From the NCBI RefSeq assembly GCF_044324785.1, contig NZ_CP172127.1: a stretch of 64,000 bases of DNA. One strand, 5' to 3'. This DNA is from Escherichia coli. GTDB lineage: Bacteria; Pseudomonadota; Gammaproteobacteria; Enterobacterales; Enterobacteriaceae. The position numbers were made by a program, and so were the translations under genes. The first letter of the stretch is position 1, and every line of letters begins with the position of its first letter. Shown one piece after another: positions 2,334 to 63,999 of this stretch. The notes under the pieces are model-generated. The model did no database searches, was not told the DNA's origin, and saw only the letters and a list, made by a program, of their open reading frames with translations.

Positions 2334-4367
2334 TCACGCGTCCGGGAACATCACGCTATGGCCCGGCGCTTCACGATGGAGATGGATAAAGTTAAGGTGC
2401 CGCTCGTACTGGTCGAGAATATCGGTGATCACCTGCTCTTTGCTGTAGTCCATCAGGTCGTTGCCCTGGCTGCCTTCTAACAGGAAAGTTTCCAGCCGGT
2501 AGTAGGTCGATTTACCGCTACGTGCGCGGTAGGTAAAGCCCGGCACCGAATATTGCTGCGGCCAAATCTGATAGACAAAGTTTTGCTCTTCGCCCATATG
2601 CACCAACAAATCCAGATGCCCCAACTGTTGTCCCTCTTCCGGCGGCAGGCTTTTTAGCTCCACGTACGCGCCGCGCAACCGCAGCTCCTGCGCCACTTCT
2701 TCCATTGCCGGGTAACAGACCGTCTCCATCATCTGTTTAGTGTAACGCGTGCCCGGATAATTCATCAGGCGCGAGAGACGTTTTTTCCAGCTCAGGCGAT
2801 CCTGAAGCCCCAGCGGTCGCGGCGCGGTATCACGGTTGGCACTTTCACGGCGGTAATCTTCTACCTTCAGAGATTTATACAACCCCGCCATCACGAAGAA
2901 AATCACAAAGCTGAACGGCAGCCCCATGATTACCGTGGTGTTTTGCAGCGCGGATATCCCGTTGGTCATCAGCATGCCAAGCGTCAGCAGACCAATCGCC
3001 ACCGACCAGAAGACGCGCAGCCAGCCGGGGGCGTCGCTGTTGATATCTTTAAGCTGCGAGGTGAAATTCCCCAGCACCAGCGCGCCGGAGTCCGCCGAGG
3101 TCACATAAAACAGCAGGCCAGTAATGGTGGCGACGGAGGCGCTAAAGGTAAACGCCGGATACTGCGCCAGCAGGCTGTAGAAGCCGCGCTCCGGATGGAC
3201 CATCGCTTCCTCGGCAAATGCCGCGCCGCCGTGGATGATTTCATACAGCGCGCTATTGCCGAACACCGAGAGCCATAACAGCGTGAAGGTAAACGGAATA
3301 ATCAACGTGCCCAGCACGAACTGGCGAATGGTACGCCCACGCGAGATACGCGCCAGGAACAGGCCGACAAACGGCGACCATGCCACCCACCATGCCCAGA
3401 AGAAGAGCGTCCAGTTATTCATCCACTCAACCGGACGGTCGAAGGCAAAACTGTTGAGCGTCATTCCCATAAAGCGATTCACATAGTCGCCAACGTTCAG
3501 CACCAGCGCATTAAGCAGGAACGAGGTGTCGCCCATAAACAGCACGAACAGGATCAGCCCCAGCGCCAGCGCAACGTTGAGTTCCGATAACACACGAATG
3601 CCCTTATCGACACCGGAGGTGACAGAGATCGTTGCGATGATCACCGACAAGGCGATCAGTGCCGCTTTTGCCGCCATCGAATCAGGAATATCAAACAGTA
3701 CGCTCAAGCCATAGTTAAGCTGCACCACACCGATACCGAGCGTAGTGGCAATACCGAAGATGGTGCCGATCACTGCTGCAATATCCACTGAGTGACCTAT
3801 CGGCCCGTTAATCCGTTTACCGAAGATCGGGTACAGCGCTGAGCGGATGGTGAGCGGCAAATTATAACGATAGCTAAAGTATCCGAGCGCCATGCCCATC
3901 AGCGCATACATCGACCAGCCGGTTAAGCCGTAGTGAAACAGCGTCCAGACCATCGCCTGACGCGCGGCCTCAATCGTCTGACCCGCGCCTTCCGGCGGCT
4001 GCATATACTGCGTTACCGGTTCGGCTACGGAGAAGAACATCAGGTCGATACCGATCCCGGCAGCAAACAGCATCGCCGCCCAACTCAGCAGACTGAACTC
4101 CGGTTTGGATTGTTCTGGCCCGAGCTTCACCGAACCAAAACGCGAACAAGCGATACAGACCACAAAGACAATATAGAGCGTTGCCGCCAGCAGATAGTAC
4201 CAACCGAAGGTTTTAGAGACCCAGTCCAGCGTGCGTCCAATCCACAGGGCCGAGAAGTCGCGAAACAGGATCGTTGTCAGGGAAAACAACAAAATCAGTC
4301 CGGCGGAAGTGTAAAACACCACCGGATTGATTTTGTCCTTTTCCCTGCTGTGTGAAAGGTCTGTCAT
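2334..4367 (-). CDS. betT: choline transporter BetT (BCCT family)
   Basis: 677-aa polytopic membrane ORF starting MTDLSHSREKDK. It is divergent from betI, the classic bet locus arrangement. Confidence 0.95.
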   Translation of the reverse strand: MTDLSHSREKDKINPVVFYTSAGLILLFSLTTILFRDFSALWIGRTLDWVSKTFGWYYLLAATLYIVFVVCIACSRFGSVKLGPEQSKPEFSLLSWAAMLFAAGIGIDLMFFSVAEPVTQYMQPPEGAGQTIEAARQAMVWTLFHYGLTGWSMYALMGMALGYFSYRYNLPLTIRSALYPIFGKRINGPIGHSVDIAAVIGTIFGIATTLGIGVVQLNYGLSVLFDIPDSMAAKAALIALSVIIATISVTSGVDKGIRVLSELNVALALGLILFVLFMGDTSFLLNALVLNVGDYVNRFMGMTLNSFAFDRPVEWMNNWTLFFWAWWVAWSPFVGLFLARISRGRTIRQFVLGTLIIPFTFTLLWLSVFGNSALYEIIHGGAAFAEEAMVHPERGFYSLLAQYPAFTFSASVATITGLLFYVTSADSGALVLGNFTSQLKDINSDAPGWLRVFWSVAIGLLTLGMLMTNGISALQNTTVIMGLPFSFVIFFVMAGLYKSLKVEDYRRESANRDTAPRPLGLQDRLSWKKRLSRLMNYPGTRYTKQMMETVCYPAMEEVAQELRLRGAYVELKSLPPEEGQQLGHLDLLVHMGEEQNFVYQIWPQQYSVPGFTYRARSGKSTYYRLETFLLEGSQGNDLMDYSKEQVITDILDQYERHLNFIHLHREAPGHSVMFPDA

Positions 4368-55735: not shown

Positions 55736-58105
55736 TTAAATAAACATAAGAATAAACATCAGAAGTTCTTCGTATCTGATACCATACTGATAGCCAGCAG
55801 GTTTAATAATAACCTGCCTTCCTGTGTAATATTCCTCGTCGTACCACTCTCCTGTTTCATTGTTTTTAACACTCCTAATCAATACCTCTGGAGCATAAAT
55901 ATCATCCCATTCATCATAACACCAGAACGCATAGTTATTAGGGTCAAGACCGTATTTTCTGAGAATATTACCTACAGTTTGTGCACCAACGCCGAAATGA
56001 ATCCGAGCGCCATCACTCTTGATCTTTACTGCATCTTTAAATTTAAACCTCCAGATATTTTCCTTTATTTCAAGCGCAGCAAGACGCTCTGATTCTGTTG
56101 TTTTCTCGTCAGCCTCAATACGCAATTTCAGCTCTTCATTCGACGTGTTGATACTGCCAGTACCAGCGTATACCTGTGACCATCGAAATGCTGATGTTCC
56201 GTTTGAGTTAACATTATCAACAGTTGGTTTTATAAGGCCAGAAAAATGAGTTTCAGGTGTATTAATATATGTATATGCACCTGCTGTACTACGAGTCCTT
56301 AACTCAAAGCTGTCTATATCAACACCAGTCCTACGAATTATAAGGAAGTTATTTCCTGCGGAACCAGTATCGGTTTGAGTGCTAACAGACAATCCGTTTC
56401 GTGTATCAATACGTATATTCTTCCCGTTCTCCAGCGAAGCAGAATTATGTAGATACAGCGAGTTGTCAGTGTAGAGATTGTGTTTACCTACATTGCTAAA
56501 TGTATAAGTATTGCTTGTGTTATCACTGTTCCTATGGAATTGCTGAAGAGTGTAGGCAGAAGATGCTCCGTATCCATCACAATGGAAATTTCTGCACAGC
56601 TGCAAATCGAATAACAATACGGTGTCAGCATTAATGCTCACATTATTAAAGCATGTTGCAAAGTTGGCACCATACTGTGAATTGGAATCGCCAATCTGTG
56701 CGCACACATCAAGCAAACCAAAAGTTACATTGGTAAAGTTATTTGCATCACCGGCGTCAAGAACAATCCCTTTCTTAGTCCCTGAATACCCTCTGGCAGT
56801 GCCGATCTCAACTCCCTGGAATGAACACACGCGAGCACGACTAAGCTTAAGACCAACCCATTCCAGACCATGATCGTAACCTTTTGCTGCGCGGTGAATA
56901 AACATACCATTCATGATGAGAAGGAATCTGTTATCAAGCCGTACTGGTTCAAGTTGGGCATTAATACCAACATTTGTGCATATACATTCACCATAAGCAT
57001 AACGATTCGTTTCAAATATACGATCATCAGCGTCGTAAATGCCTCGTAATGCCTTGGCGGCATCAATATTAAGCAATGTAAAATATGTCTTCTGCTTAAT
57101 TTCAAAAAAATTTGCAACATTATGCGTTGTGATATCACTCACACGCATTGATAAAATCCCCTCTTCTGGAGCGGTGCGAATGAATCCATCAAGGAACTGT
57201 TCATTATAACTTTTGGCTATCTGATAACATCCAACAGCATCAATGCGTTCGATTGTGAACTGCCAACTATCACCACAGTTAAAAGACCATCTCCAGCCGT
57301 ATTTCTGAGCGAATTCATCATATTCAACATTTGCAGGTTCAGAACAGAAAGATAAAAATCTAAATGTTGGTTTTGGCCTTAGATGGTTAATCCCGGAACC
57401 TCTTGGGGTATATATGGCATTATCTCCATTCCCACCTTTTGTTTTAACTGTAAGGTGACTTAAACCAAATTCAATATCATATTTAGTTGGTGCGGCGAAA
57501 ACAAAGCCGTCTTTTGGTGATGTGGTATTGTCAAACACAATAACCGTTTCACCCTGCCCATCACCGCACATATTTACTGGTGGTATATTAACGGGGCCAG
57601 TCAAACTATATGTTCCAGTTGGCACATATAGTTTTCCACCCTCTCCAATAGCATTTGCCGCTGCAATAAATGCCGCCGTATCATCGTTAACACCGTCACC
57701 TTTCGCCCCATAATGCTGTGGCGTAATTAACAGCATACGGTCAGAAAAAATCTCTGTCCTAAGTTGATCAGGATCGTATTTTAATACATTTGGAAAATAA
57801 AACTGCTGAGTGCCATATGCATCATATACAGCCATAGAATGGCCTTGCACGGTAACGAATTTGGCAATCTGTCCGTTATATACCGGATAACCAGCAGCGT
57901 TAATAATGATTGGTTGAGAAACAGGAACGTGAGAACCGTCTTCGTTCTCTACATAAACCGGAATCTGGTTTTCAGGATTTACCGGGTCAGTGTCAATTTT
58001 ACCGATATAAATTTTTCCATTAGCATTTGCTTTAAACGAGCGAGCTAAAGTGAATAACTGACTTGGTTGTGAAACAACAACATTGGCATTTATTGAATCT
58101 GTCAT
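55736..58105 (-). CDS. tailspike: P22 gp9-type head-binding domain + pectate-lyase-like beta-helix depolymerase + C-terminal intramolecular chaperone (peptidase S74-like) domain
   Basis: The N-terminus [18 protein letters not shown]...[26 protein letters not shown]...[13 protein letters not shown] is nearly the P22 gp9 N-domain. [19 protein letters not shown] is a beta-helix signature. The C-terminal part has NTSNEELK (Ser-x4-Lys) and a chaperone-like tail. Confidence 0.9.
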
Positions 58106-58204: not shown

Positions 58205-59083
58205 TCAGTAGTTATGTACTGAAGGAGGTAATTCTTTATTCTTAAGTCTCATCCATGCGGAAATATTCGTTGGTCCGTCTGGCTCATTAATATCAACATC
58301 TCGTGTGTGATTGATTAAAACGTCTCTCGCCATTCCGATAACATACGAGAATTCATGACCGTAGTCGTAGCATCTGCCGGAATAGTTCGATTGAATTTGT
58401 TTCAGCGCCGGATACAGTTCGCGGAATAATGCCTGTGAGCGGTTGGCATAATCCCATAACCATACAAGGCTGTTTGCTTCTTTTGCAGAAAGCTCGTTGG
58501 TTTTCTTCTCTTGTTTGCCAATGAACTCACCTTCAAGCACTACCCTGTGGATGTACTCTACGGCCAGCGGGATTTGTTCAATTGAAAGTTCATCAATGCT
58601 GTCAATACCAAAACGCTGATGAACCATATTGTATGCATCGTCATAGCGAAGTCCTTTCTTTCCTACCAGCATGTTTACTGCATCGCGTAGCGGTGTTCTT
58701 TCCTCAACAGTGGTTTTCTTTCCTTTTACATACTCGCCATGTTTGCGAATTGAAGGCAGAACTTCTGCTGTTACCCACTTGCGGAATTTGTGCGGGACTG
58801 AACCTTTATTGACTGCATCGCGGCAGCGCAGAACCAATGTATACATACCTGATTCGCTCACAATGCTTAGATTCTGCTCACCACCAAGGGTGTAACTTAA
58901 AGTTACTCCCTTTTCATCGTCATCAAGTGCAGTAAGCGCCTTGCGTGAGTTAGTCAAATCTAAAGCATCACAAACATCTTTAGCTACAAACCACGGCTCA
59001 CCGCACTTGTTGATGACGCGGATTTCACTGTCGCCGAATTTGAAGATGGTGAAATCGTTTTGTGCCTTTGCTATACTTTTCAT
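58205..59083 (-). CDS. ant: antirepressor Ant (Bro-N + KilA-C type)
   Basis: [28 protein letters not shown]...[11 protein letters not shown] is a Bro-N domain. It is immediately downstream of arc, as in P22 immI. Confidence 0.9.
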
Positions 59084-59403: not shown

Positions 59404-59658
59404 ATGGCTAGAGATGATCCGCACTTTAACTTCCGTATGCCTTTGGAAGTAAGAGAAAAATTGAAATTAAGAGCCGAGGCTAACGGAAGGTCAATGAACT
59501 CTGAGTTATTACAAATCGTTCAGGATGCACTATCAAAACCATCACCGATTACAGGATATCGCGACGAAGCTGAACGCTTGGCTGATCAGCAGGCTGAGCA
59601 GTTCAAGGCTATAGTGTTTGAGACACTTAAAAAGATTTATGAAAAGGATTTGAAATGA
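59404..59658 (+). CDS. mnt: Mnt repressor
   Basis: MARDDPHFNFRMPLEVREKLKLRAEANGRSMNSELLQIVQDAL... is a ribbon-helix-helix protein close to P22 Mnt. It is divergent from arc. Confidence 0.95.
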   Translation: MARDDPHFNFRMPLEVREKLKLRAEANGRSMNSELLQIVQDALSKPSPITGYRDEAERLADQQAEQFKAIVFETLKKIYEKDLK

Positions 59659-59709
59659 GATTTCTATCACTGTTCTTGTTAGCAGTTGTCTCTTCTTCCA
59701 GTGCTGAGC

Positions 59710-60766
59710 GGCTTTGTTGAATAAATCGAACTTTTGCTGAGTTGAAGGATCAGATCACGTATCTTCCCGACAACGCAGACCGTTCCGTGGCAAAGCAAAA
59801 GTTCAAAATCACCAACTGGCCCACCTACAATAAAGCCCTCATCAACCGTGGCTCCATAACTTTCTGGCTGGATGATGAAGCTATTCAGGCCTGGTATGAG
59901 TCAGCAACACCTTCTTCACGAGGCAGACCTCAGCGCTATTCTGACCTTGCCATCACTACTGTGCTGGTCATTAAACGCGTATTCAGGCTGACCCTGCGGG
60001 CTGCGCAGGGCTTTATTGATTCCATTTTTTCTCTGATGAACGTTCCGCTACGCTGCCCGGATTACAGCTGTGTCAGCAGGCGGGCAAAGTCGGTTAATGT
60101 CAGTTTCAAAACGCCCACCCGGGGTGAAATCGCACACCTGGTAATTGATTCCACCGGGCTGAAGGTCTTCGGTGAAGGCGAGTGGAAAGTCAAAAAGCAT
60201 GGCCAGGAACGCCGCCGTATCTGGCGTAAGCTGCATCTCGCCGTTGACAGTAAAACACATGAAATCATCTGCGCTGACCTGTCGCTGAACAACGTTACGG
60301 ACTCAGAGGCCTTCCCCGGGTTAATCCGGCAAACCCACCGGAAAATCAGGTCAGCCGCCGCCGATGGCGCTTACGATACCCGGCTATGTCACGATGAACT
60401 GCGGCGTAAGAAAATCAGCGCGCTTATCCCTCCCCGAAAAGGTGCGGGTTACTGGCCCGGTGAATATGCAGACCGTAACCGTGCAGTGGCTAATCAGCGA
60501 ATGACCGGGAGTAATGCGCGGTGGAAATGGACAACAGATTACAACCGTCGCTCGATAGCGGAAACGGCGATGTACCGGGTAAAACAGCTGTTCGGGGGTT
60601 CACTGACGCTGCGTGACTACGATGGTCAGGTTGCGGAGGCTATGGCCCTGGTACGAGCGCTGAACAAAATGACGAAAGCAGGTATGCCTGAAAGCGTGCG
60701 TATTGCCTGAAAACACAACCCGCTACGGGGGAGACTTACCCGAAATCTGATTTATTCAACAAAGCC
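59710..60766 (+). mobile_element. IS903/IS102-type insertion sequence (IS5 family), 1057 bp
   Basis: Perfect 18-bp terminal inverted repeats GGCTTTGTTGAATAAATC, flanked by a 9-bp direct duplication GTGCTGAGC (59701-59709 and 60767-60775). Confidence 0.95.
59787..60710 (+). CDS. IS903-type transposase (DDE)
   Basis: A GTG start giving (M)AKQKFKITNWPTYNKALINRGS yields 307 aa, as recalled for IS903 Tnp. The track ORF begins 15 codons earlier at TTG. Confidence 0.9.
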   Translation: MAKQKFKITNWPTYNKALINRGSITFWLDDEAIQAWYESATPSSRGRPQRYSDLAITTVLVIKRVFRLTLRAAQGFIDSIFSLMNVPLRCPDYSCVSRRAKSVNVSFKTPTRGEIAHLVIDSTGLKVFGEGEWKVKKHGQERRRIWRKLHLAVDSKTHEIICADLSLNNVTDSEAFPGLIRQTHRKIRSAAADGAYDTRLCHDELRRKKISALIPPRKGAGYWPGEYADRNRAVANQRMTGSNARWKWTTDYNRRSIAETAMYRVKQLFGGSLTLRDYDGQVAEAMALVRALNKMTKAGMPESVRIA

Positions 60767-61071
60767 GTGCTGAGCTGCGCGAGCTTCAAACGGGTAATGA
60801 CCTTCTTTACAACATTCAACAAGGTAAAAAGGGTGATGATTTTTCATCGCTTTACATTACTGGATATTTGCGCGGAGTAACTGACTCATTGATACTAATT
60901 GGTTCTCTATGTCCTCCTGATGGCGTTGACATGTATCAATACACCGATATCGTTGAGAAATCTCTAAACAAAAACCCAGAATCAAGAAATGAGAGTGCAG
61001 TTATACTAACCGCCCTAGCAGTAGGAAAAACATTTCCGTGCAAAAAGAATCAATAACAATAAGGGCTTAAA

Positions 61072-61461
61072 ATGAAATTGATTATAGCAATGGCTTTCCT
61101 TGTCTTCTCGTTTTCTGTCTCAGCAGAGTGCTGGGTCGTTGGAGATATGCACGGAATAAGCTATTCAGAACGAAATAATTTTCAACCGGAAGAAGATGGT
61201 TTTAGTGGAACATTCATCATTAAGACAAACGGTGAAGATGCCAGTATCACATATTCTGGGACGGATGCGGGCGGCATGGCTTACAAAGCATTGTCTAAAA
61301 ACTCCATCCTAGGAATTGGCGCGAATGGAGAAACTCAACGCGTTATAGACTCATGGGTAATACATCCTACTGGAACAGTTTTAATGTCAAAAACCATTTC
61401 CGGTTATGGAAATATGGATTCAACCAAAGCTTTTGTTGGAAAAGTAAAAAGAAAATGTTAA
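61072..61461 (+). CDS. hypothetical secreted protein, 129 aa
   Basis: Signal peptide MKLIIAMAFLVFSFSVSA. Same strand as, and 15 nt downstream of, the interrupted gene. No recognisable domain. Confidence 0.6.
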   Translation: MKLIIAMAFLVFSFSVSAECWVVGDMHGISYSERNNFQPEEDGFSGTFIIKTNGEDASITYSGTDAGGMAYKALSKNSILGIGANGETQRVIDSWVIHPTGTVLMSKTISGYGNMDSTKAFVGKVKRKC

Positions 61462-61482: not shown

Positions 61483-61668
61483 TCAACAGCTTCCGCGTCC
61501 CTGAGTAATTCTGTTGCGGATTTGCTTCTTGCGGTGGTTTAAGCTGGAGAGCTTGGCTTCTGCTTCTGATATTTGCGCATCAAGATCTTTAAGCTCAAGA
61601 TCTGAAAGTCGCTGGTCAAGCAGGGTTTGGTTCAACTCAATATTGTTCAGACGTTCTTCTATGGTCAT
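61483..61668 (-). CDS. hypothetical 61-aa coiled-coil protein
   Basis: ATG 61668 lies 8 nt after AGGA. It encodes MTIEERLNNIELNQTLLDQRLSDLELKDLDAQISEAEAKLSSLNHRKKQIRNRI, which has heptad character. Confidence 0.45.
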   Translation of the reverse strand: MTIEERLNNIELNQTLLDQRLSDLELKDLDAQISEAEAKLSSLNHRKKQIRNRITQGRGSC

Positions 61669-61699
61669 AACTTTCATCCTATAACTATTTGGAATCAAA

Positions 61700-61882
61700 A
61701 TGAAAAATATATTAATTGGTTTCGTTTTTGGTGCAGCCTGCGCTGCCAGCATTAGCGTTATCGCCGCCCAGATTGTTGGTGGTAACTCATATCTAATGGG
61801 CTATGACGTCATGATAGATGGAGAGGTTGTTTGCTCAGACCCTTATGTATGGACGTCGACAAAAGAAATAGAATGTGACTAA
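61700..61882 (+). CDS. hypothetical 60-aa protein with an N-terminal signal/anchor and conserved-looking Cys pair
   Basis: [23 protein letters not shown]... followed by a terminator. Weak SD. Confidence 0.45.
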
Positions 61883-61883
61883 T

Positions 61884-61908
61884 ACCAGCCTGATGGCTGG
61901 TTAATTTT
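61884..61908 (+). terminator. rho-independent terminator
   Basis: accagcc-tgat-ggctggt followed by taattttt. Confidence 0.7.
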
Positions 61909-61992
61909 TGCATTTACCTGGGCCATATTGACTACTTATAAAATGAGATCAATATTTAATCGCCCAATAACGGGTGTATGTTGAGGTATATC

Positions 61993-62172
61993 ATGGCGAA
62001 AAAACCAGGTGAAAATACAGGGAAAAACGGCGGAATATACCAGGAAGTTGGTCCACGCGGTGGTAAGAAGGACAATTTTGCCACCGTCAGGGACAACGAA
62101 AGACTTCCGCCAACAACAAAGCCAGGTCATGGCTGGGTATTGGATAAGCGAACTCCAGACAGCAAAAAGTAA
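61993..62172 (+). CDS. YjzC-like small protein (59 aa)
   Basis: MAKKPGENTGKNGGIYQEVGPRGG...LPPTTKPGHGW fits the YjzC-family pattern as recalled. GAGG SD lies 6 nt upstream. Confidence 0.6.
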   Translation: MAKKPGENTGKNGGIYQEVGPRGGKKDNFATVRDNERLPPTTKPGHGWVLDKRTPDSKK

Positions 62173-62177
62173 TAATC

Positions 62178-62200
62178 AAGCCGGGTCACTCCGGCTTTTT
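62178..62200. terminator. hairpin terminator shared by the convergent genes
   Basis: aagccgg-gtcact-ccggctt followed by ttt. It overlaps the last codons of the minus-strand gene. Confidence 0.6.
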
Positions 62201-62551
62201 GATATGTCGCTCGCAGAACTCAACAAGCCTGCTCATTAAGTAGCAGTAAGTCTCGTTGGCTCTTCCTGGTTCAACATCAACACCTACCCTTGAGCAGATA
62301 TCGAATGCCATGTGAGCGCACTCATGGGCAATAGTAGATAGTTTGCCATTGAACACGCCTATCACATGCAAAACACCATTCTCGCTACTCATTGTATGAG
62401 ACGCTCCGTTGGCGTCCGAGTCATGCACGTCAACGCCAAGTTTTTGATGCAGGCGTTGCCATTCTGGAAAGTCTCTACAAAACACAATGGTACCGCTCTC
62501 AAAGAGCGGTACGAGCATCTTTGGTACGTTTCCAATGTTAACTTTTTTCAT
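62186..62551 (-). CDS. small HExxH protein (121 aa), possible minimal ImmA/IrrE-like metallopeptidase
   Basis: TIAHECAHMAFD...EPGRANETYCYL: an HExxH motif plus a downstream E/AN segment reminiscent of COG2856 proteins. The family assignment is tentative. Confidence 0.55.
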   Translation of the reverse strand: MKKVNIGNVPKMLVPLFESGTIVFCRDFPEWQRLHQKLGVDVHDSDANGASHTMSSENGVLHVIGVFNGKLSTIAHECAHMAFDICSRVGVDVEPGRANETYCYLMSRLVEFCERHIKKPE

Positions 62552-62581
62552 GGTATCCTGCGCAAAACTAAGGAGGTTGGT

Positions 62582-62770
62582 GTGAAGAAAAAATTTGTAA
62601 ACGTTGCAAAGTGCGCAATTTTTATATTTTTTATGACCTTTTACGGATTTAGTGCCGGAGAAGGTTTCGATCGTGATGCCAATGCATTCAGTTTCTTTTG
62701 TCTGTCTATAGTGGTCATAATTGTATGGGTGGAATTAAAGCAAACATTGTTTCATGTGCTAGGGAAATAA
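62582..62770 (+). CDS. hypothetical 62-aa two-TM membrane peptide
   Basis: GTG 62582 lies 5 nt after AGGAGG. It encodes (M)KKKFVNVAKCAIFIFFMTFYGF...FSFFCLSIVVIIVWV. It is divergent from the HExxH gene, with 30 nt between the starts. Confidence 0.5.
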   Translation: MKKKFVNVAKCAIFIFFMTFYGFSAGEGFDRDANAFSFFCLSIVVIIVWVELKQTLFHVLGK

Positions 62771-62787
62771 CCATCCATGGCATTTAG

Positions 62788-63999
62788 TCACTGCTGTGTT
62801 GCCTCAGTGGCAAGCAGCGGTCTGATGGCATTCGCAGCGTTATTCAGCGCTCTTTCATAGGCTGGTGTTCCAGCTTTAGTGTTTGCCAGACGTAAGAGAG
62901 CATTCCTTGCTGCTTTGGACTCATACAAGCGCATGATTGCACCGAAACCAGCCTCAAGTCCCAGTGATACACCAAGGGTTGCAGTTGCGCCAATCGTTCT
63001 AATCCTGTTAGCTTGCGATTGTCCTGTCTGTGTTACTACATTTGCGGCGTCCGACCTTGCTGTTTGCTGTAGAACTTCATGAAGAGCATCAAGCTCTTTC
63101 ATGTGTCTCCCACTGAATATCGTGTTATAGATCTGACCGTCAGATTGCGACTTCAACTTATTTAACTCGGTAAGAAATTTTGTTGGCGAGTCTCCTGCTT
63201 TTTCTGCAATCTTGCTGATATAAGCAGCACGCATAGCGTTCTTTCCATCTTCACTAAGAGCTGGCCATATCCTCTTAATATCTGATGGTTTTCTGCTGAA
63301 TACAACGCTGTTTATTAGCTCTGGAGTAAACTCTTTTTTAGCTTTGTTGAGATTATTCGCAATCCTTTTATTAAGAACCTTATTGAAGACGTTGGAGTAG
63401 TCAGAGTTTGCTTTGACGTATCTGGCGGCCTCTCCAGCCCCCAAATACCGCGCTGCGTTATTCCTCAAATCCGCCCCCATTGCCCTCTCCACGGCATCAG
63501 TTGCGGCTTTCGCGCTATTAGGAAAAACCATGGCATCTCCCTGAATACTTTCCCTCAAGGCTGACCGCAACTCTCTCAATAGACCAAAATCTATATCTGG
63601 TTTAGCAAGTTCTTCTCGCAAATCGGATAACCCGCGAATCAAATCCTTATTTGCCACTTTCCCAAGCCTATTAGCTCTGGTAAGTACGTTGTCGATAACC
63701 TTAATAGATTTTGATGTGTCAACTGGTGTGTCTCCCATTTTGGCTGTAATGTCTTCAATAACGCTTCCGGCCGAATCCTTCCTTGACTTCAGAGAGCCAT
63801 ACAGATCGTCAACAACAACTGATGGGCTATATTCACCATATTTCTCAAGCTGTTTTTTAACTAGCTGACTTCTTTTTGCATACTGCTCAGCTCGCTTTGA
63901 GCCTGTTCCCAGCAAAGCCCCCTCAGCATCCTGAGTAAGACCACGAGTGAAAGCATTTTTCGGCGGGATTACATCAGATGTCATTGGTGTCACGCCCAT
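62788..63999 (-). CDS. phage DNA-ejection (injection) protein, gp16-position homolog; start at or near the window edge
   Basis: 403-aa Ala/Lys-rich ORF on the same strand as the tailspike, occupying the position of the last ejection gene in P22-like genomes. The start could be ATG 63999, ATG 63984, or outside the window. Confidence 0.6.

Follow-up and report, generated by a model that had tools for sequence, protein, structure and literature searches.

The ant moron of P22-like phages, a non-structural insert between genes 16 and 9, has been described as changing rapidly, and PLate transcription continues across it into the tailspike gene 9 (PMC2629481). Two genes relevant here, hkcC and 59a, have been listed as genes without assigned function (PMC2629481; hkcC also PMC4837284). 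A better understood gene is sieA, which lies between genes 16 and 9 and runs against the late operon, is present in only 22 of 66 P22-like phages, and encodes an inner-membrane protein that is alone sufficient for superinfection exclusion (PMC10883804). A single copy of sieA together with 85 bp of its upstream DNA conferred strong exclusion, with expression, in the authors' view, likely driven from PsieA (Leavitt et al. 2024, PMC10883804). Here we compare with these systems a 64,000-nt stretch of Escherichia coli contig NZ_CP172127.1 (assembly GCF_044324785.1), hereafter the window, near whose end a 121-aa minus-strand open reading frame (ORF) with an HExxH motif stands head to head with a plus-strand ORF for a 62-aa peptide.

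HK620 and P22 already have the 121-aa gene under the name hkcC, an ORF that was never characterised; the 62-aa gene is a new allele, for the most part unannotated, of the cargo slot that is filled by sieA in P22 and by hkcB in HK620 and is known to be hypervariable. The two genes very probably do not form a dedicated pair, and are probably best regarded as independent neighbours in a fast-changing cargo region. Functional statements on both genes are drawn from sequence, predicted structure and genomic context. The features on which the comparison depends are as follows.

61993–62172, plus strand: orf59a homologue of 59 aa (YjzC family), convergent with hkcC, a frequent but non-obligate neighbour
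62178–62197: bidirectional terminator between the convergent orf59a and hkcC, terminator-like on both strands; the HK620 record has tORF59A at the homologous place
62186–62551, minus strand: hkcC, 121 aa, with a predicted minimal gluzincin-type zinc-metallopeptidase site
62497–62581, plus strand: equivalent of the 85 bp upstream of P22 sieA (putative PsieA), overlapping the first 18 hkcC codons
62552–62581: divergent intergenic region of 30 nt, the start-to-start spacer of hkcC and the 62-aa gene
62564–62910, plus strand: exchangeable cassette seen in hkcC-less phages
62582–62770, plus strand: 62-aa peptide gene with GTG start, in the sieA/hkcB slot
62788–63999, minus strand: 3′ part of gene 16 (ejection/DNA-transfer protein), cut by the window end

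Gene 16 adjoins at the position where HK620, P22 and E. coli CH4794 have it annotated, which makes the window's end the right-hand portion of a late operon, that of a P22-like (Lederbergvirus) prophage in E. coli, and the P22 order of tailspike gene, ant, arc, mnt, orf59a, hkcC, slot gene and gene 16 is kept. A megablast search of phage genomes found positions 61900–62584 to be about 97% identical to P22, HK620 and about 55 further P22-like phages. In a three-way DNA alignment of the window, HK620 and P22, near-identity runs through orf59a, the terminator, hkcC, the 30-nt spacer, the Shine-Dalgarno (SD) sequence and the GTG, and similarity is gone from the next codon. Over hkcC itself, identity of the DNA to the HK620 and P22 region is about 97%. 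The gene, annotated as hkcC in the HK620 record, has the same position and orientation between orf59a and the slot (PHROG 1365), with no substantive difference from the window gene.

Occurrence of hkcC and the 62-aa gene

Both ORFs are real genes and not chance ORFs, judging by their PHROG matches and their ratios of nonsynonymous to synonymous substitution rates (dN/dS). HkcC matches phrog_1365, a PHROG of unknown function, at E 1.7e-39, with dN/dS of about 0.04–0.05 against P22 and HK620. The peptide matches phrog_21338 at E 4.3e-45, and its dN/dS of about 0.3 against 81%-identical homologues indicates purifying selection.

The preliminary description had proposed that the two genes work as one two-component module, either a sensor/effector or a toxin/antitoxin pair, and had named absence of co-occurrence in other genomes as the result that would overturn the proposal; this is what was found. 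In 80 IMG/VR loci with hkcC at least 99% identical to that of the window, in which the ORF at the conserved slot start was translated, the 62-aa peptide was beside the near-identical hkcC in only four. The hkcC region was present in 268 of 5426 complete E. coli genomes, and 18 of these 268 had both hkcC and the peptide gene. Conversely, the isolated phages phiv205-1, UPF_BP1 and JEP4 (3/3) carry a 97–98%-identical peptide gene without hkcC, and the 81%-identical peptide homologues always abut the 3′ end of gene 16 while lacking hkcC in seven of eight loci. Their other neighbour is a Rap1a-like gene plus mnt in Serratia-type loci; in Salmonella loci it is a 161-aa gene together with an S24 repressor, an Arc-like gene or HicA/DUF1902. 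The hkcC-family genes of other phages have no divergent membrane gene alongside.

In four Serratia-type P22-like prophages (L094–L097, about 3640–4190), a 115–118-aa PF18602 (Rap1a) gene precedes the peptide gene on the same strand, directly after mnt, and hkcC is absent. PF18602 is presumably a family of type VI secretion immunity proteins.

The sieA slot and its 62-aa occupant

The signals ahead of the peptide gene are those of the slot. As first noted, 30 nt (62552–62581) separate the two start codons and hold a strong AGGAGG SD (62571–62576) 5 nt before the GTG; on the other strand, this spacer has AGGA before the ATG of hkcC. The peptide gene shares its GTG start with P22 sieA and HK620 hkcB, and homology to both phages stops after that codon. 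The spacer is nearly identical in the window, HK620 and P22, and the same string precedes 11 of the 12 slot gene types found in the 80 loci. A compact divergent control region shared by the two genes, as claimed in the preliminary description, is thus present, but it is a fixed feature of the locus that also stands ahead of sieA and hkcB, and not the mark of a partnership between a protease and a peptide. DNA equivalent to the 85-bp sieA upstream region is conserved in the window, and TGgTATCCT (62551–62559) could, from its letters, be an extended -10 element for the slot gene. PsieA itself was reportedly defined by Hofer et al. in 1995. In two loci (L003 and L004), a 7-nt tandem duplication of the SD region (GGAGGTTGGAGGTTGGTG) ahead of hkcB is a length variant of the otherwise fixed control region.

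Twelve unrelated proteins share the slot among the 80 loci, with no pair of types similar at E <= 0.01.

161-aa lipoprotein: 18 of 80 loci
SieA: 13 of 80 loci
129-aa protein with signal peptide: 12 of 80 loci
HkcB: 8 of 80 loci
75-aa transmembrane protein: 8 of 80 loci
second 109-aa type: 6 of 80 loci
106-aa protein: 5 of 80 loci
62-aa peptide: 4 of 80 loci
four rarer types together: 6 of 80 loci

A strong hydrophobic segment is found in 10 of the 12 types, and the homology break falls right after the GTG in 11 of them and within the SD in the lipoprotein type. HkcB of HK620 and the other occupants, such as the lipoprotein, the signal-peptide protein and the 75-aa type, are alternative fillings of one site, all of them uncharacterised and most of them envelope proteins, and are unrelated to the peptide and to one another.

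The unit that moves can be delimited by comparison with the hkcC-less phages. Homology blocks in phiv205-1, JEP4 and UPF_BP1 run from 62551 or 62564 to 62910, and on these alignments the mobile unit is 62564–62910, which holds the SD, the peptide gene, a 17-nt spacer and, in antisense, the final 41 codons of gene 16. At 62859–62876, inside the 3′ end of gene 16, is a stem-loop that resembles a terminator for the peptide transcript. All close cassette-bearing relatives, including CH4794, lose the match at 62910, so that the gene 16 body of the window is a different allele joined to a shared C-terminal tail. Position 62910 is a sharp mosaic junction inside the ejection-protein gene, 41 codons before its end. 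Escape from SieA has been mapped to mutations in the C-terminal regions of gp16 and gp20, and a specific co-variation of the gp16 tail with the slot gene was considered and rejected: the tails track slot type finely, yet the peptide and the unrelated 129-aa gene share one tail. The tracking is explained by linkage through adjacency, since the terminator of the slot gene lies inside the 3′ end of gene 16.

The plus-strand ORF of 62 aa with a GTG start and two hydrophobic stretches, as previously noted, was confirmed, with the stretches at about residues 5–25 and 32–57. A longer in-frame ORF of 134 aa (62366–62770) was rejected as the gene, because the P22/HK620 homology crosses the SD and GTG and ends there, and because hkcC-less loci also encode 62 aa. 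Homologues 77–98% identical occur in E. coli, Salmonella and Serratia, and conservation extends over all 62 residues, with the loop GEGFxRDxN and the tail WVELKxxLFHxLGK among the conserved parts; the N-terminus is basic and the C-terminus charged. The gene is unannotated in RefSeq CH4794, where the sequence is identical, and in the GenBank records of phiv205-1, UPF_BP1 and JEP4, so that annotation-based surveys will overlook it.

The peptide gene shares with P22 sieA the genomic slot between genes 16 and 9, the upstream DNA, the SD, the GTG and an orientation that runs against the late operon, and both products have a predicted location in the membrane. SieA differs in having 162–164 aa and three predicted transmembrane helices, against 62 aa and two hydrophobic segments, and the proteins have no sequence similarity (BLASTP E 0.29, not significant; the motif FxRYPxEAxxFNK, looked for as a mark of the SieA family with its types A–C, is absent from the peptide). 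No SieA homologue was found elsewhere within the window, and none of HkcC, the peptide, orf59a and the 129-aa protein had a match in PADLOC-DB at E <= 1. The small two-helix membrane peptide suggested earlier does look like a two-segment membrane protein, and it stands at a locus known for superinfection exclusion.

The slot appears to be a plug-in site for at least 12 unrelated genes, nearly all of them coding for membrane proteins, secreted proteins or lipoproteins, in which the peptide gene would use the putative PsieA inside the 5′ end of hkcC and the same SD and GTG as sieA and hkcB. Because the slot holds mostly envelope proteins behind shared sieA signals, the likeliest reading is that the prophage expresses the peptide and that it forms a hairpin in the inner membrane; its sequence, with basic residues at either end, suggests that both termini are cytoplasmic. 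Its most likely job would be a lysogenic-conversion function at the envelope, and the guess favoured here is that it acts alone, as SieA does, to exclude superinfecting phages at the step of DNA entry. T4 Imm and HK97 gp15 are small phage- or moron-encoded membrane proteins that alone stop incoming phage DNA at the inner membrane, and they offer the favoured working model for the peptide, as a likeness of mechanism only. That the peptide is an exclusion factor is proposed tentatively, as a possibility that stands somewhat short of even chances.

The main alternative to exclusion is that the peptide is a small membrane toxin, acting as a pinholin-like lysis protein or an abortive-infection effector. 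Its small size, two hydrophobic segments and charged C-terminus would suit such a role, and the gene is antisense to late read-through transcription, which could modulate it. Nevertheless, the strong SD and the upstream DNA are as before sieA, a prophage-expressed gene with little or no effect on growth in single copy, and the peptide gene is distant from the lysis cassette, is stably carried in many lysogens, shows in its dN/dS of 0.3 ordinary purifying selection, and has no antitoxin-like partner conserved beside it. A toxin is thus an improbable reading, and exclusion at the DNA-entry step is kept as the working proposal.

HkcC and its possible partners

The 121-aa ORF with its TIAHECAHM motif was read at 62186–62551, with the motif residues H76, E77 and H80, and the EPGRANETYCYL reported about 20 residues after HExxH was found to span E94 to L105, with E100 at H80 + 20. 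AHECAH and ANET are kept in 20 HkcC homologues (43–99% identity). An exhaustive profile search delimited a family of 517 representative clusters, and in 105 diverse relatives (23–74% identity) exactly four columns are invariant, namely H76, E77, H80 and E100. The HExxH is accordingly a genuine conserved metallopeptidase signature, and the lack of conservation that the preliminary description had allowed for was not seen. HkcC is short, as had been remarked, but not unusually so: nearly all of the 517 clusters encode 100–145 aa, so that about 120 aa is the family norm. No match to HkcC was obtained in the Pfam, NCBIfam and PADLOC libraries. Hydropathy revealed no hydrophobic segment, and the protein is therefore expected to be cytoplasmic and soluble. 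By these comparisons, HkcC is a member of a so far undescribed large family of stand-alone phage proteins of about 120 aa.

Within hkcC codons 14–21, which encode a conserved VPLFESG motif, there is a perfect 10-bp palindrome with a 3-nt loop (62490–62512; GTACCGCTCT-CAA-AGAGCGGTAC). It lies 70–90 nt upstream of the slot gene start, is flagged as terminator-like on the minus strand and has one mismatch in P22 and HK620; it could be an operator, an attenuator or a by-product of the codons.

The AlphaFold check proposed in the preliminary description was run, and the AlphaFold2 model of HkcC was confident, with a predicted local distance difference test score of 89.3 and a predicted template modelling score of 0.83. 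In this model, the HExxH sits on helix 71–88, a further helix (100–116) begins at E100, and a four-stranded sheet is backed by one helix, which matches a minimal zincin in layout. Gluzincins carry the HExxH on a helix and a Glu, their third metal ligand, on the following helix; in HkcC, H76, E77 and H80 are invariant in the 20 close and 105 diverse members and fall on the first predicted helix, and the invariant E100 starts the second. HkcC also aligned without gaps to a thermolysin-type site, HExxH...(G)xxNE, with identical spacing from H to E, at a sub-threshold E of 0.09. In thermolysin-type gluzincins (M4), the Glu follows 20 residues past the second His, and Asn precedes Glu in both (ANE in HkcC, LNE in the aligned neutral protease).

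Solved structures gave no significant fold match to HkcC, the top Foldseek match in the PDB being SPRTN at E 0.2. Against the PDB, a 20-sequence HkcC profile gave no match, and a 105-sequence profile gave only sub-threshold zincins (myroilysin at 0.05, astacin-type proteases at 0.16–0.2). Predicted viral structures in BFVD yielded 26 matches at E <= 1e-3, with template modelling scores up to 0.82, which are unnamed or labelled "SprT-like" or "Metalloprotease" and come from Pseudomonas, Ralstonia, Erwinia (including jumbo), Salmonella, Achromobacter, Eggerthella and crAss-like phages; a BFVD "SprT-like family protein" matches HkcC at E 2.5e-5. The Pfam SprT-like model (PF10263) matches three of the 105 relatives (best E 1e-4), and the window HkcC itself has no Pfam match and so falls outside PF10263. 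Wss1 and Spartan have been termed minigluzincins (PMC4559962). The minigluzincins of the SprT-like/Wss1/Spartan type share with HkcC a very small core of a beta-sheet, an HExxH helix and one further helix; they differ in that HkcC lacks DNA-binding or accessory domains, and its matches to their solved structures are below significance. Based on sequence and the model, HkcC is a predicted gluzincin-type minimal metallopeptidase with the SprT-like minigluzincins as nearest named relatives, and it is probably a zinc peptidase.

Kinship with ImmA/IrrE (COG2856), which the preliminary description had favoured, was supported by neither profile, structure nor neighbouring gene, although ImmA/IrrE proteins share with HkcC the HExxH metallopeptidase motif and the mobile-element setting. 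PF06114 (Peptidase M78) matched neither the window HkcC (E <= 1) nor any of the 105 relatives (E <= 0.01), and viral models labelled IrrE were only weakly similar to HkcC (E >= 0.036, template modelling score <= 0.42). No cognate helix-turn-helix repressor gene (Xre/cI-type) stands next to hkcC, whose neighbours are the 62-aa peptide gene and the YjzC-like orf59a; the nearest DNA-binding gene is mnt, about 2.5 kb off. A literature search on characterised small phage HExxH anti-defence proteins yielded only an unrelated pair from Listeria, a secreted metzincin and a TIMP-like protein.

All 11 diverged genomic HkcC homologues (38–63% identity), from Xenorhabdus, Proteus, Pasteurellaceae, Kluyvera, Citrobacter, Mixta, Atlantibacter, Arsenophonus and Moraxella, are co-directional with upstream phage genes. 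Six lie between the lysis cassette and the terminase genes, three after tail-tube and chaperone genes, and one each after a Mu-F-like gene and after replication gene O. In the window, hkcC is sense to the late operon, and the DNA upstream on its own strand is the variable slot, so that no conserved promoter exists beyond the 30-nt spacer. From this orientation and lack of a conserved promoter of its own, we infer that hkcC is most likely made in lytic growth through PLate read-through, where HkcC would cleave a cytoplasmic substrate; late expression is considered rather likely.

In a Kluyvera sp. prophage (L086, 4001–5014), the hkcC-family gene is followed after 4 nt by a gene for a 212-aa PF18894 "putative phage metallopeptidase" (E 1.4e-42), also with an HExxH, so that two different small HExxH proteins stand in tandem between lysis and terminase genes.

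Another candidate partner of hkcC is the convergent orf59a, with which, perhaps along with mnt, it would form a portable cassette. The orf59a gene is convergent with hkcC in 70 of the 80 phage loci and in three diverged loci whose phage contexts are quite unlike (L084, L083 among tail genes, and L085 after replication genes), and the two genes share the bidirectional terminator. Still, 8 of the 11 diverged hkcC homologues are without orf59a, and orf59a homologues (68–74% identity) occurred in 10 of 10 loci without an hkcC-family gene detectable by hidden Markov model. This separate occurrence rejects orf59a as an obligate partner, and simple physical linkage explains the remainder; a partnership of the two is improbable. 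Since the two families are often separate, HkcC-type proteins behave as stand-alone genes.

Less probable again is that HkcC serves as a generic lytic-phase counterpart of any slot protein, for instance clearing the prophage's own membrane blocker at lytic onset. Such a role would explain the constant presence of hkcC beside 12 slot types, and the opposite orientations of hkcC and the slot gene suggest opposite expression programmes. However, the slot proteins are unrelated and belong to different compartments (lipoprotein, secreted, transmembrane and one soluble), and are therefore implausible common substrates for a cytoplasmic peptidase. In other phages, members of the family have no such neighbour and sit among tail genes or between the lysis and terminase genes, slot genes also occur without hkcC, and a sieA+ prophage leaves progeny production after induction unaffected (PMC10883804). 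A dedicated two-component unit of HExxH protein and membrane peptide under one divergent region fares worst and is highly improbable: the head-to-head genes with 30 nt between their starts, the invariant HExxH and the inheritance of both genes as a block (62164–62910) in four IMG/VR contigs and E. coli CH4794 are outweighed by the pairing of hkcC with 12 unrelated slot genes, by the few loci and genomes that hold both genes, by near-identical and 81%-identical peptides in hkcC-less loci, by hkcC-family genes elsewhere that lack a divergent membrane gene, and by the absence of a PADLOC match.

Several points weigh against the reading preferred here. The 80 phage loci are close relatives, so their counts are not phylogenetically independent; a consensus sigma-70 promoter scan upstream of the peptide gave no match at the scan threshold; exclusion is argued from the position and membrane character of the peptide only, since its sequence is far shorter than that of SieA and has no SieA motif; and late expression of hkcC is deduced from orientation. 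A bolder reading would join two proposals, HkcC-type proteins as widespread, late-expressed minimal phage zinc peptidases and the sieA plug-in slot as the seat of a 62-aa hairpin blocker; taken jointly, these are unlikely to hold in full.

Other cargo of the ant moron and implications

The remaining features of this part of the window, in order towards orf59a, are the following.

55736–58105, minus strand: tailspike gene (ORF)
58205–59083, minus strand: ant (ORF)
next to ant, minus strand: arc (ORF)
59404–59658, plus strand: mnt (ORF), a ribbon-helix-helix gene
between mnt and orf59a: an insertion sequence (IS) element and several small ORFs

The IS element (59709–60767), just downstream of mnt, has 34-nt imperfect terminal inverted repeats (GGCTTTGTTGAATAAATCG...) and encloses a 322-aa transposase ORF at 59742–60710; we take it to resemble the IS903 group of the IS5 family. 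The prophage of E. coli CH4794, 100% identical over 62150–62800, has no IS at the mnt site. Beyond the IS as seen from mnt, positions 61072–61461 encode a 129-aa protein with a signal-peptide-like N-terminus (phrog_2651), whose 89%-identical counterpart is the sieA-slot occupant in 12 of the 80 related phage contigs. As this gene is in the slot elsewhere and outside it here, one cargo gene can take different positions in the ant moron. Two further conserved ORFs follow, a coiled-coil-like one of 64 aa (61483–61677, minus strand; phrog_7586) and one of 60 aa with a hydrophobic N-terminus (61700–61882, plus strand; phrog_37095).

In the annotations of P22 and HK620, hkcC has been an ORF without assigned function since they were first made, and it is now placed in a large family that has no Pfam or NCBIfam model. 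What is newly added is the family-wide invariance of H-E-x-x-H...E, the family size and the spread over many phage types. If the HkcC part of the joint proposal is true, the members of this class, encoded by phages that are temperate, lytic, jumbo or crAss-like, would cut some factor of the host in lytic growth, such as a defence protein or a stress protein.

The distribution of the genes contradicts the two-component module, and the value of the finding lies instead in a defined minimal-peptidase family awaiting its substrate and in a natural cassette site of candidate exclusion proteins. If the slot part of the proposal is true, at least 12 unrelated envelope proteins would be swapped behind one fixed promoter, SD and GTG, and no stand-alone blocker of podovirus DNA delivery would be smaller than the 62-aa hairpin. 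With its junction directly past the start codon in 11 of the 12 types, the sieA slot makes a clean natural cassette site, and the uncharacterised envelope proteins that occupy it are candidates for new exclusion functions.

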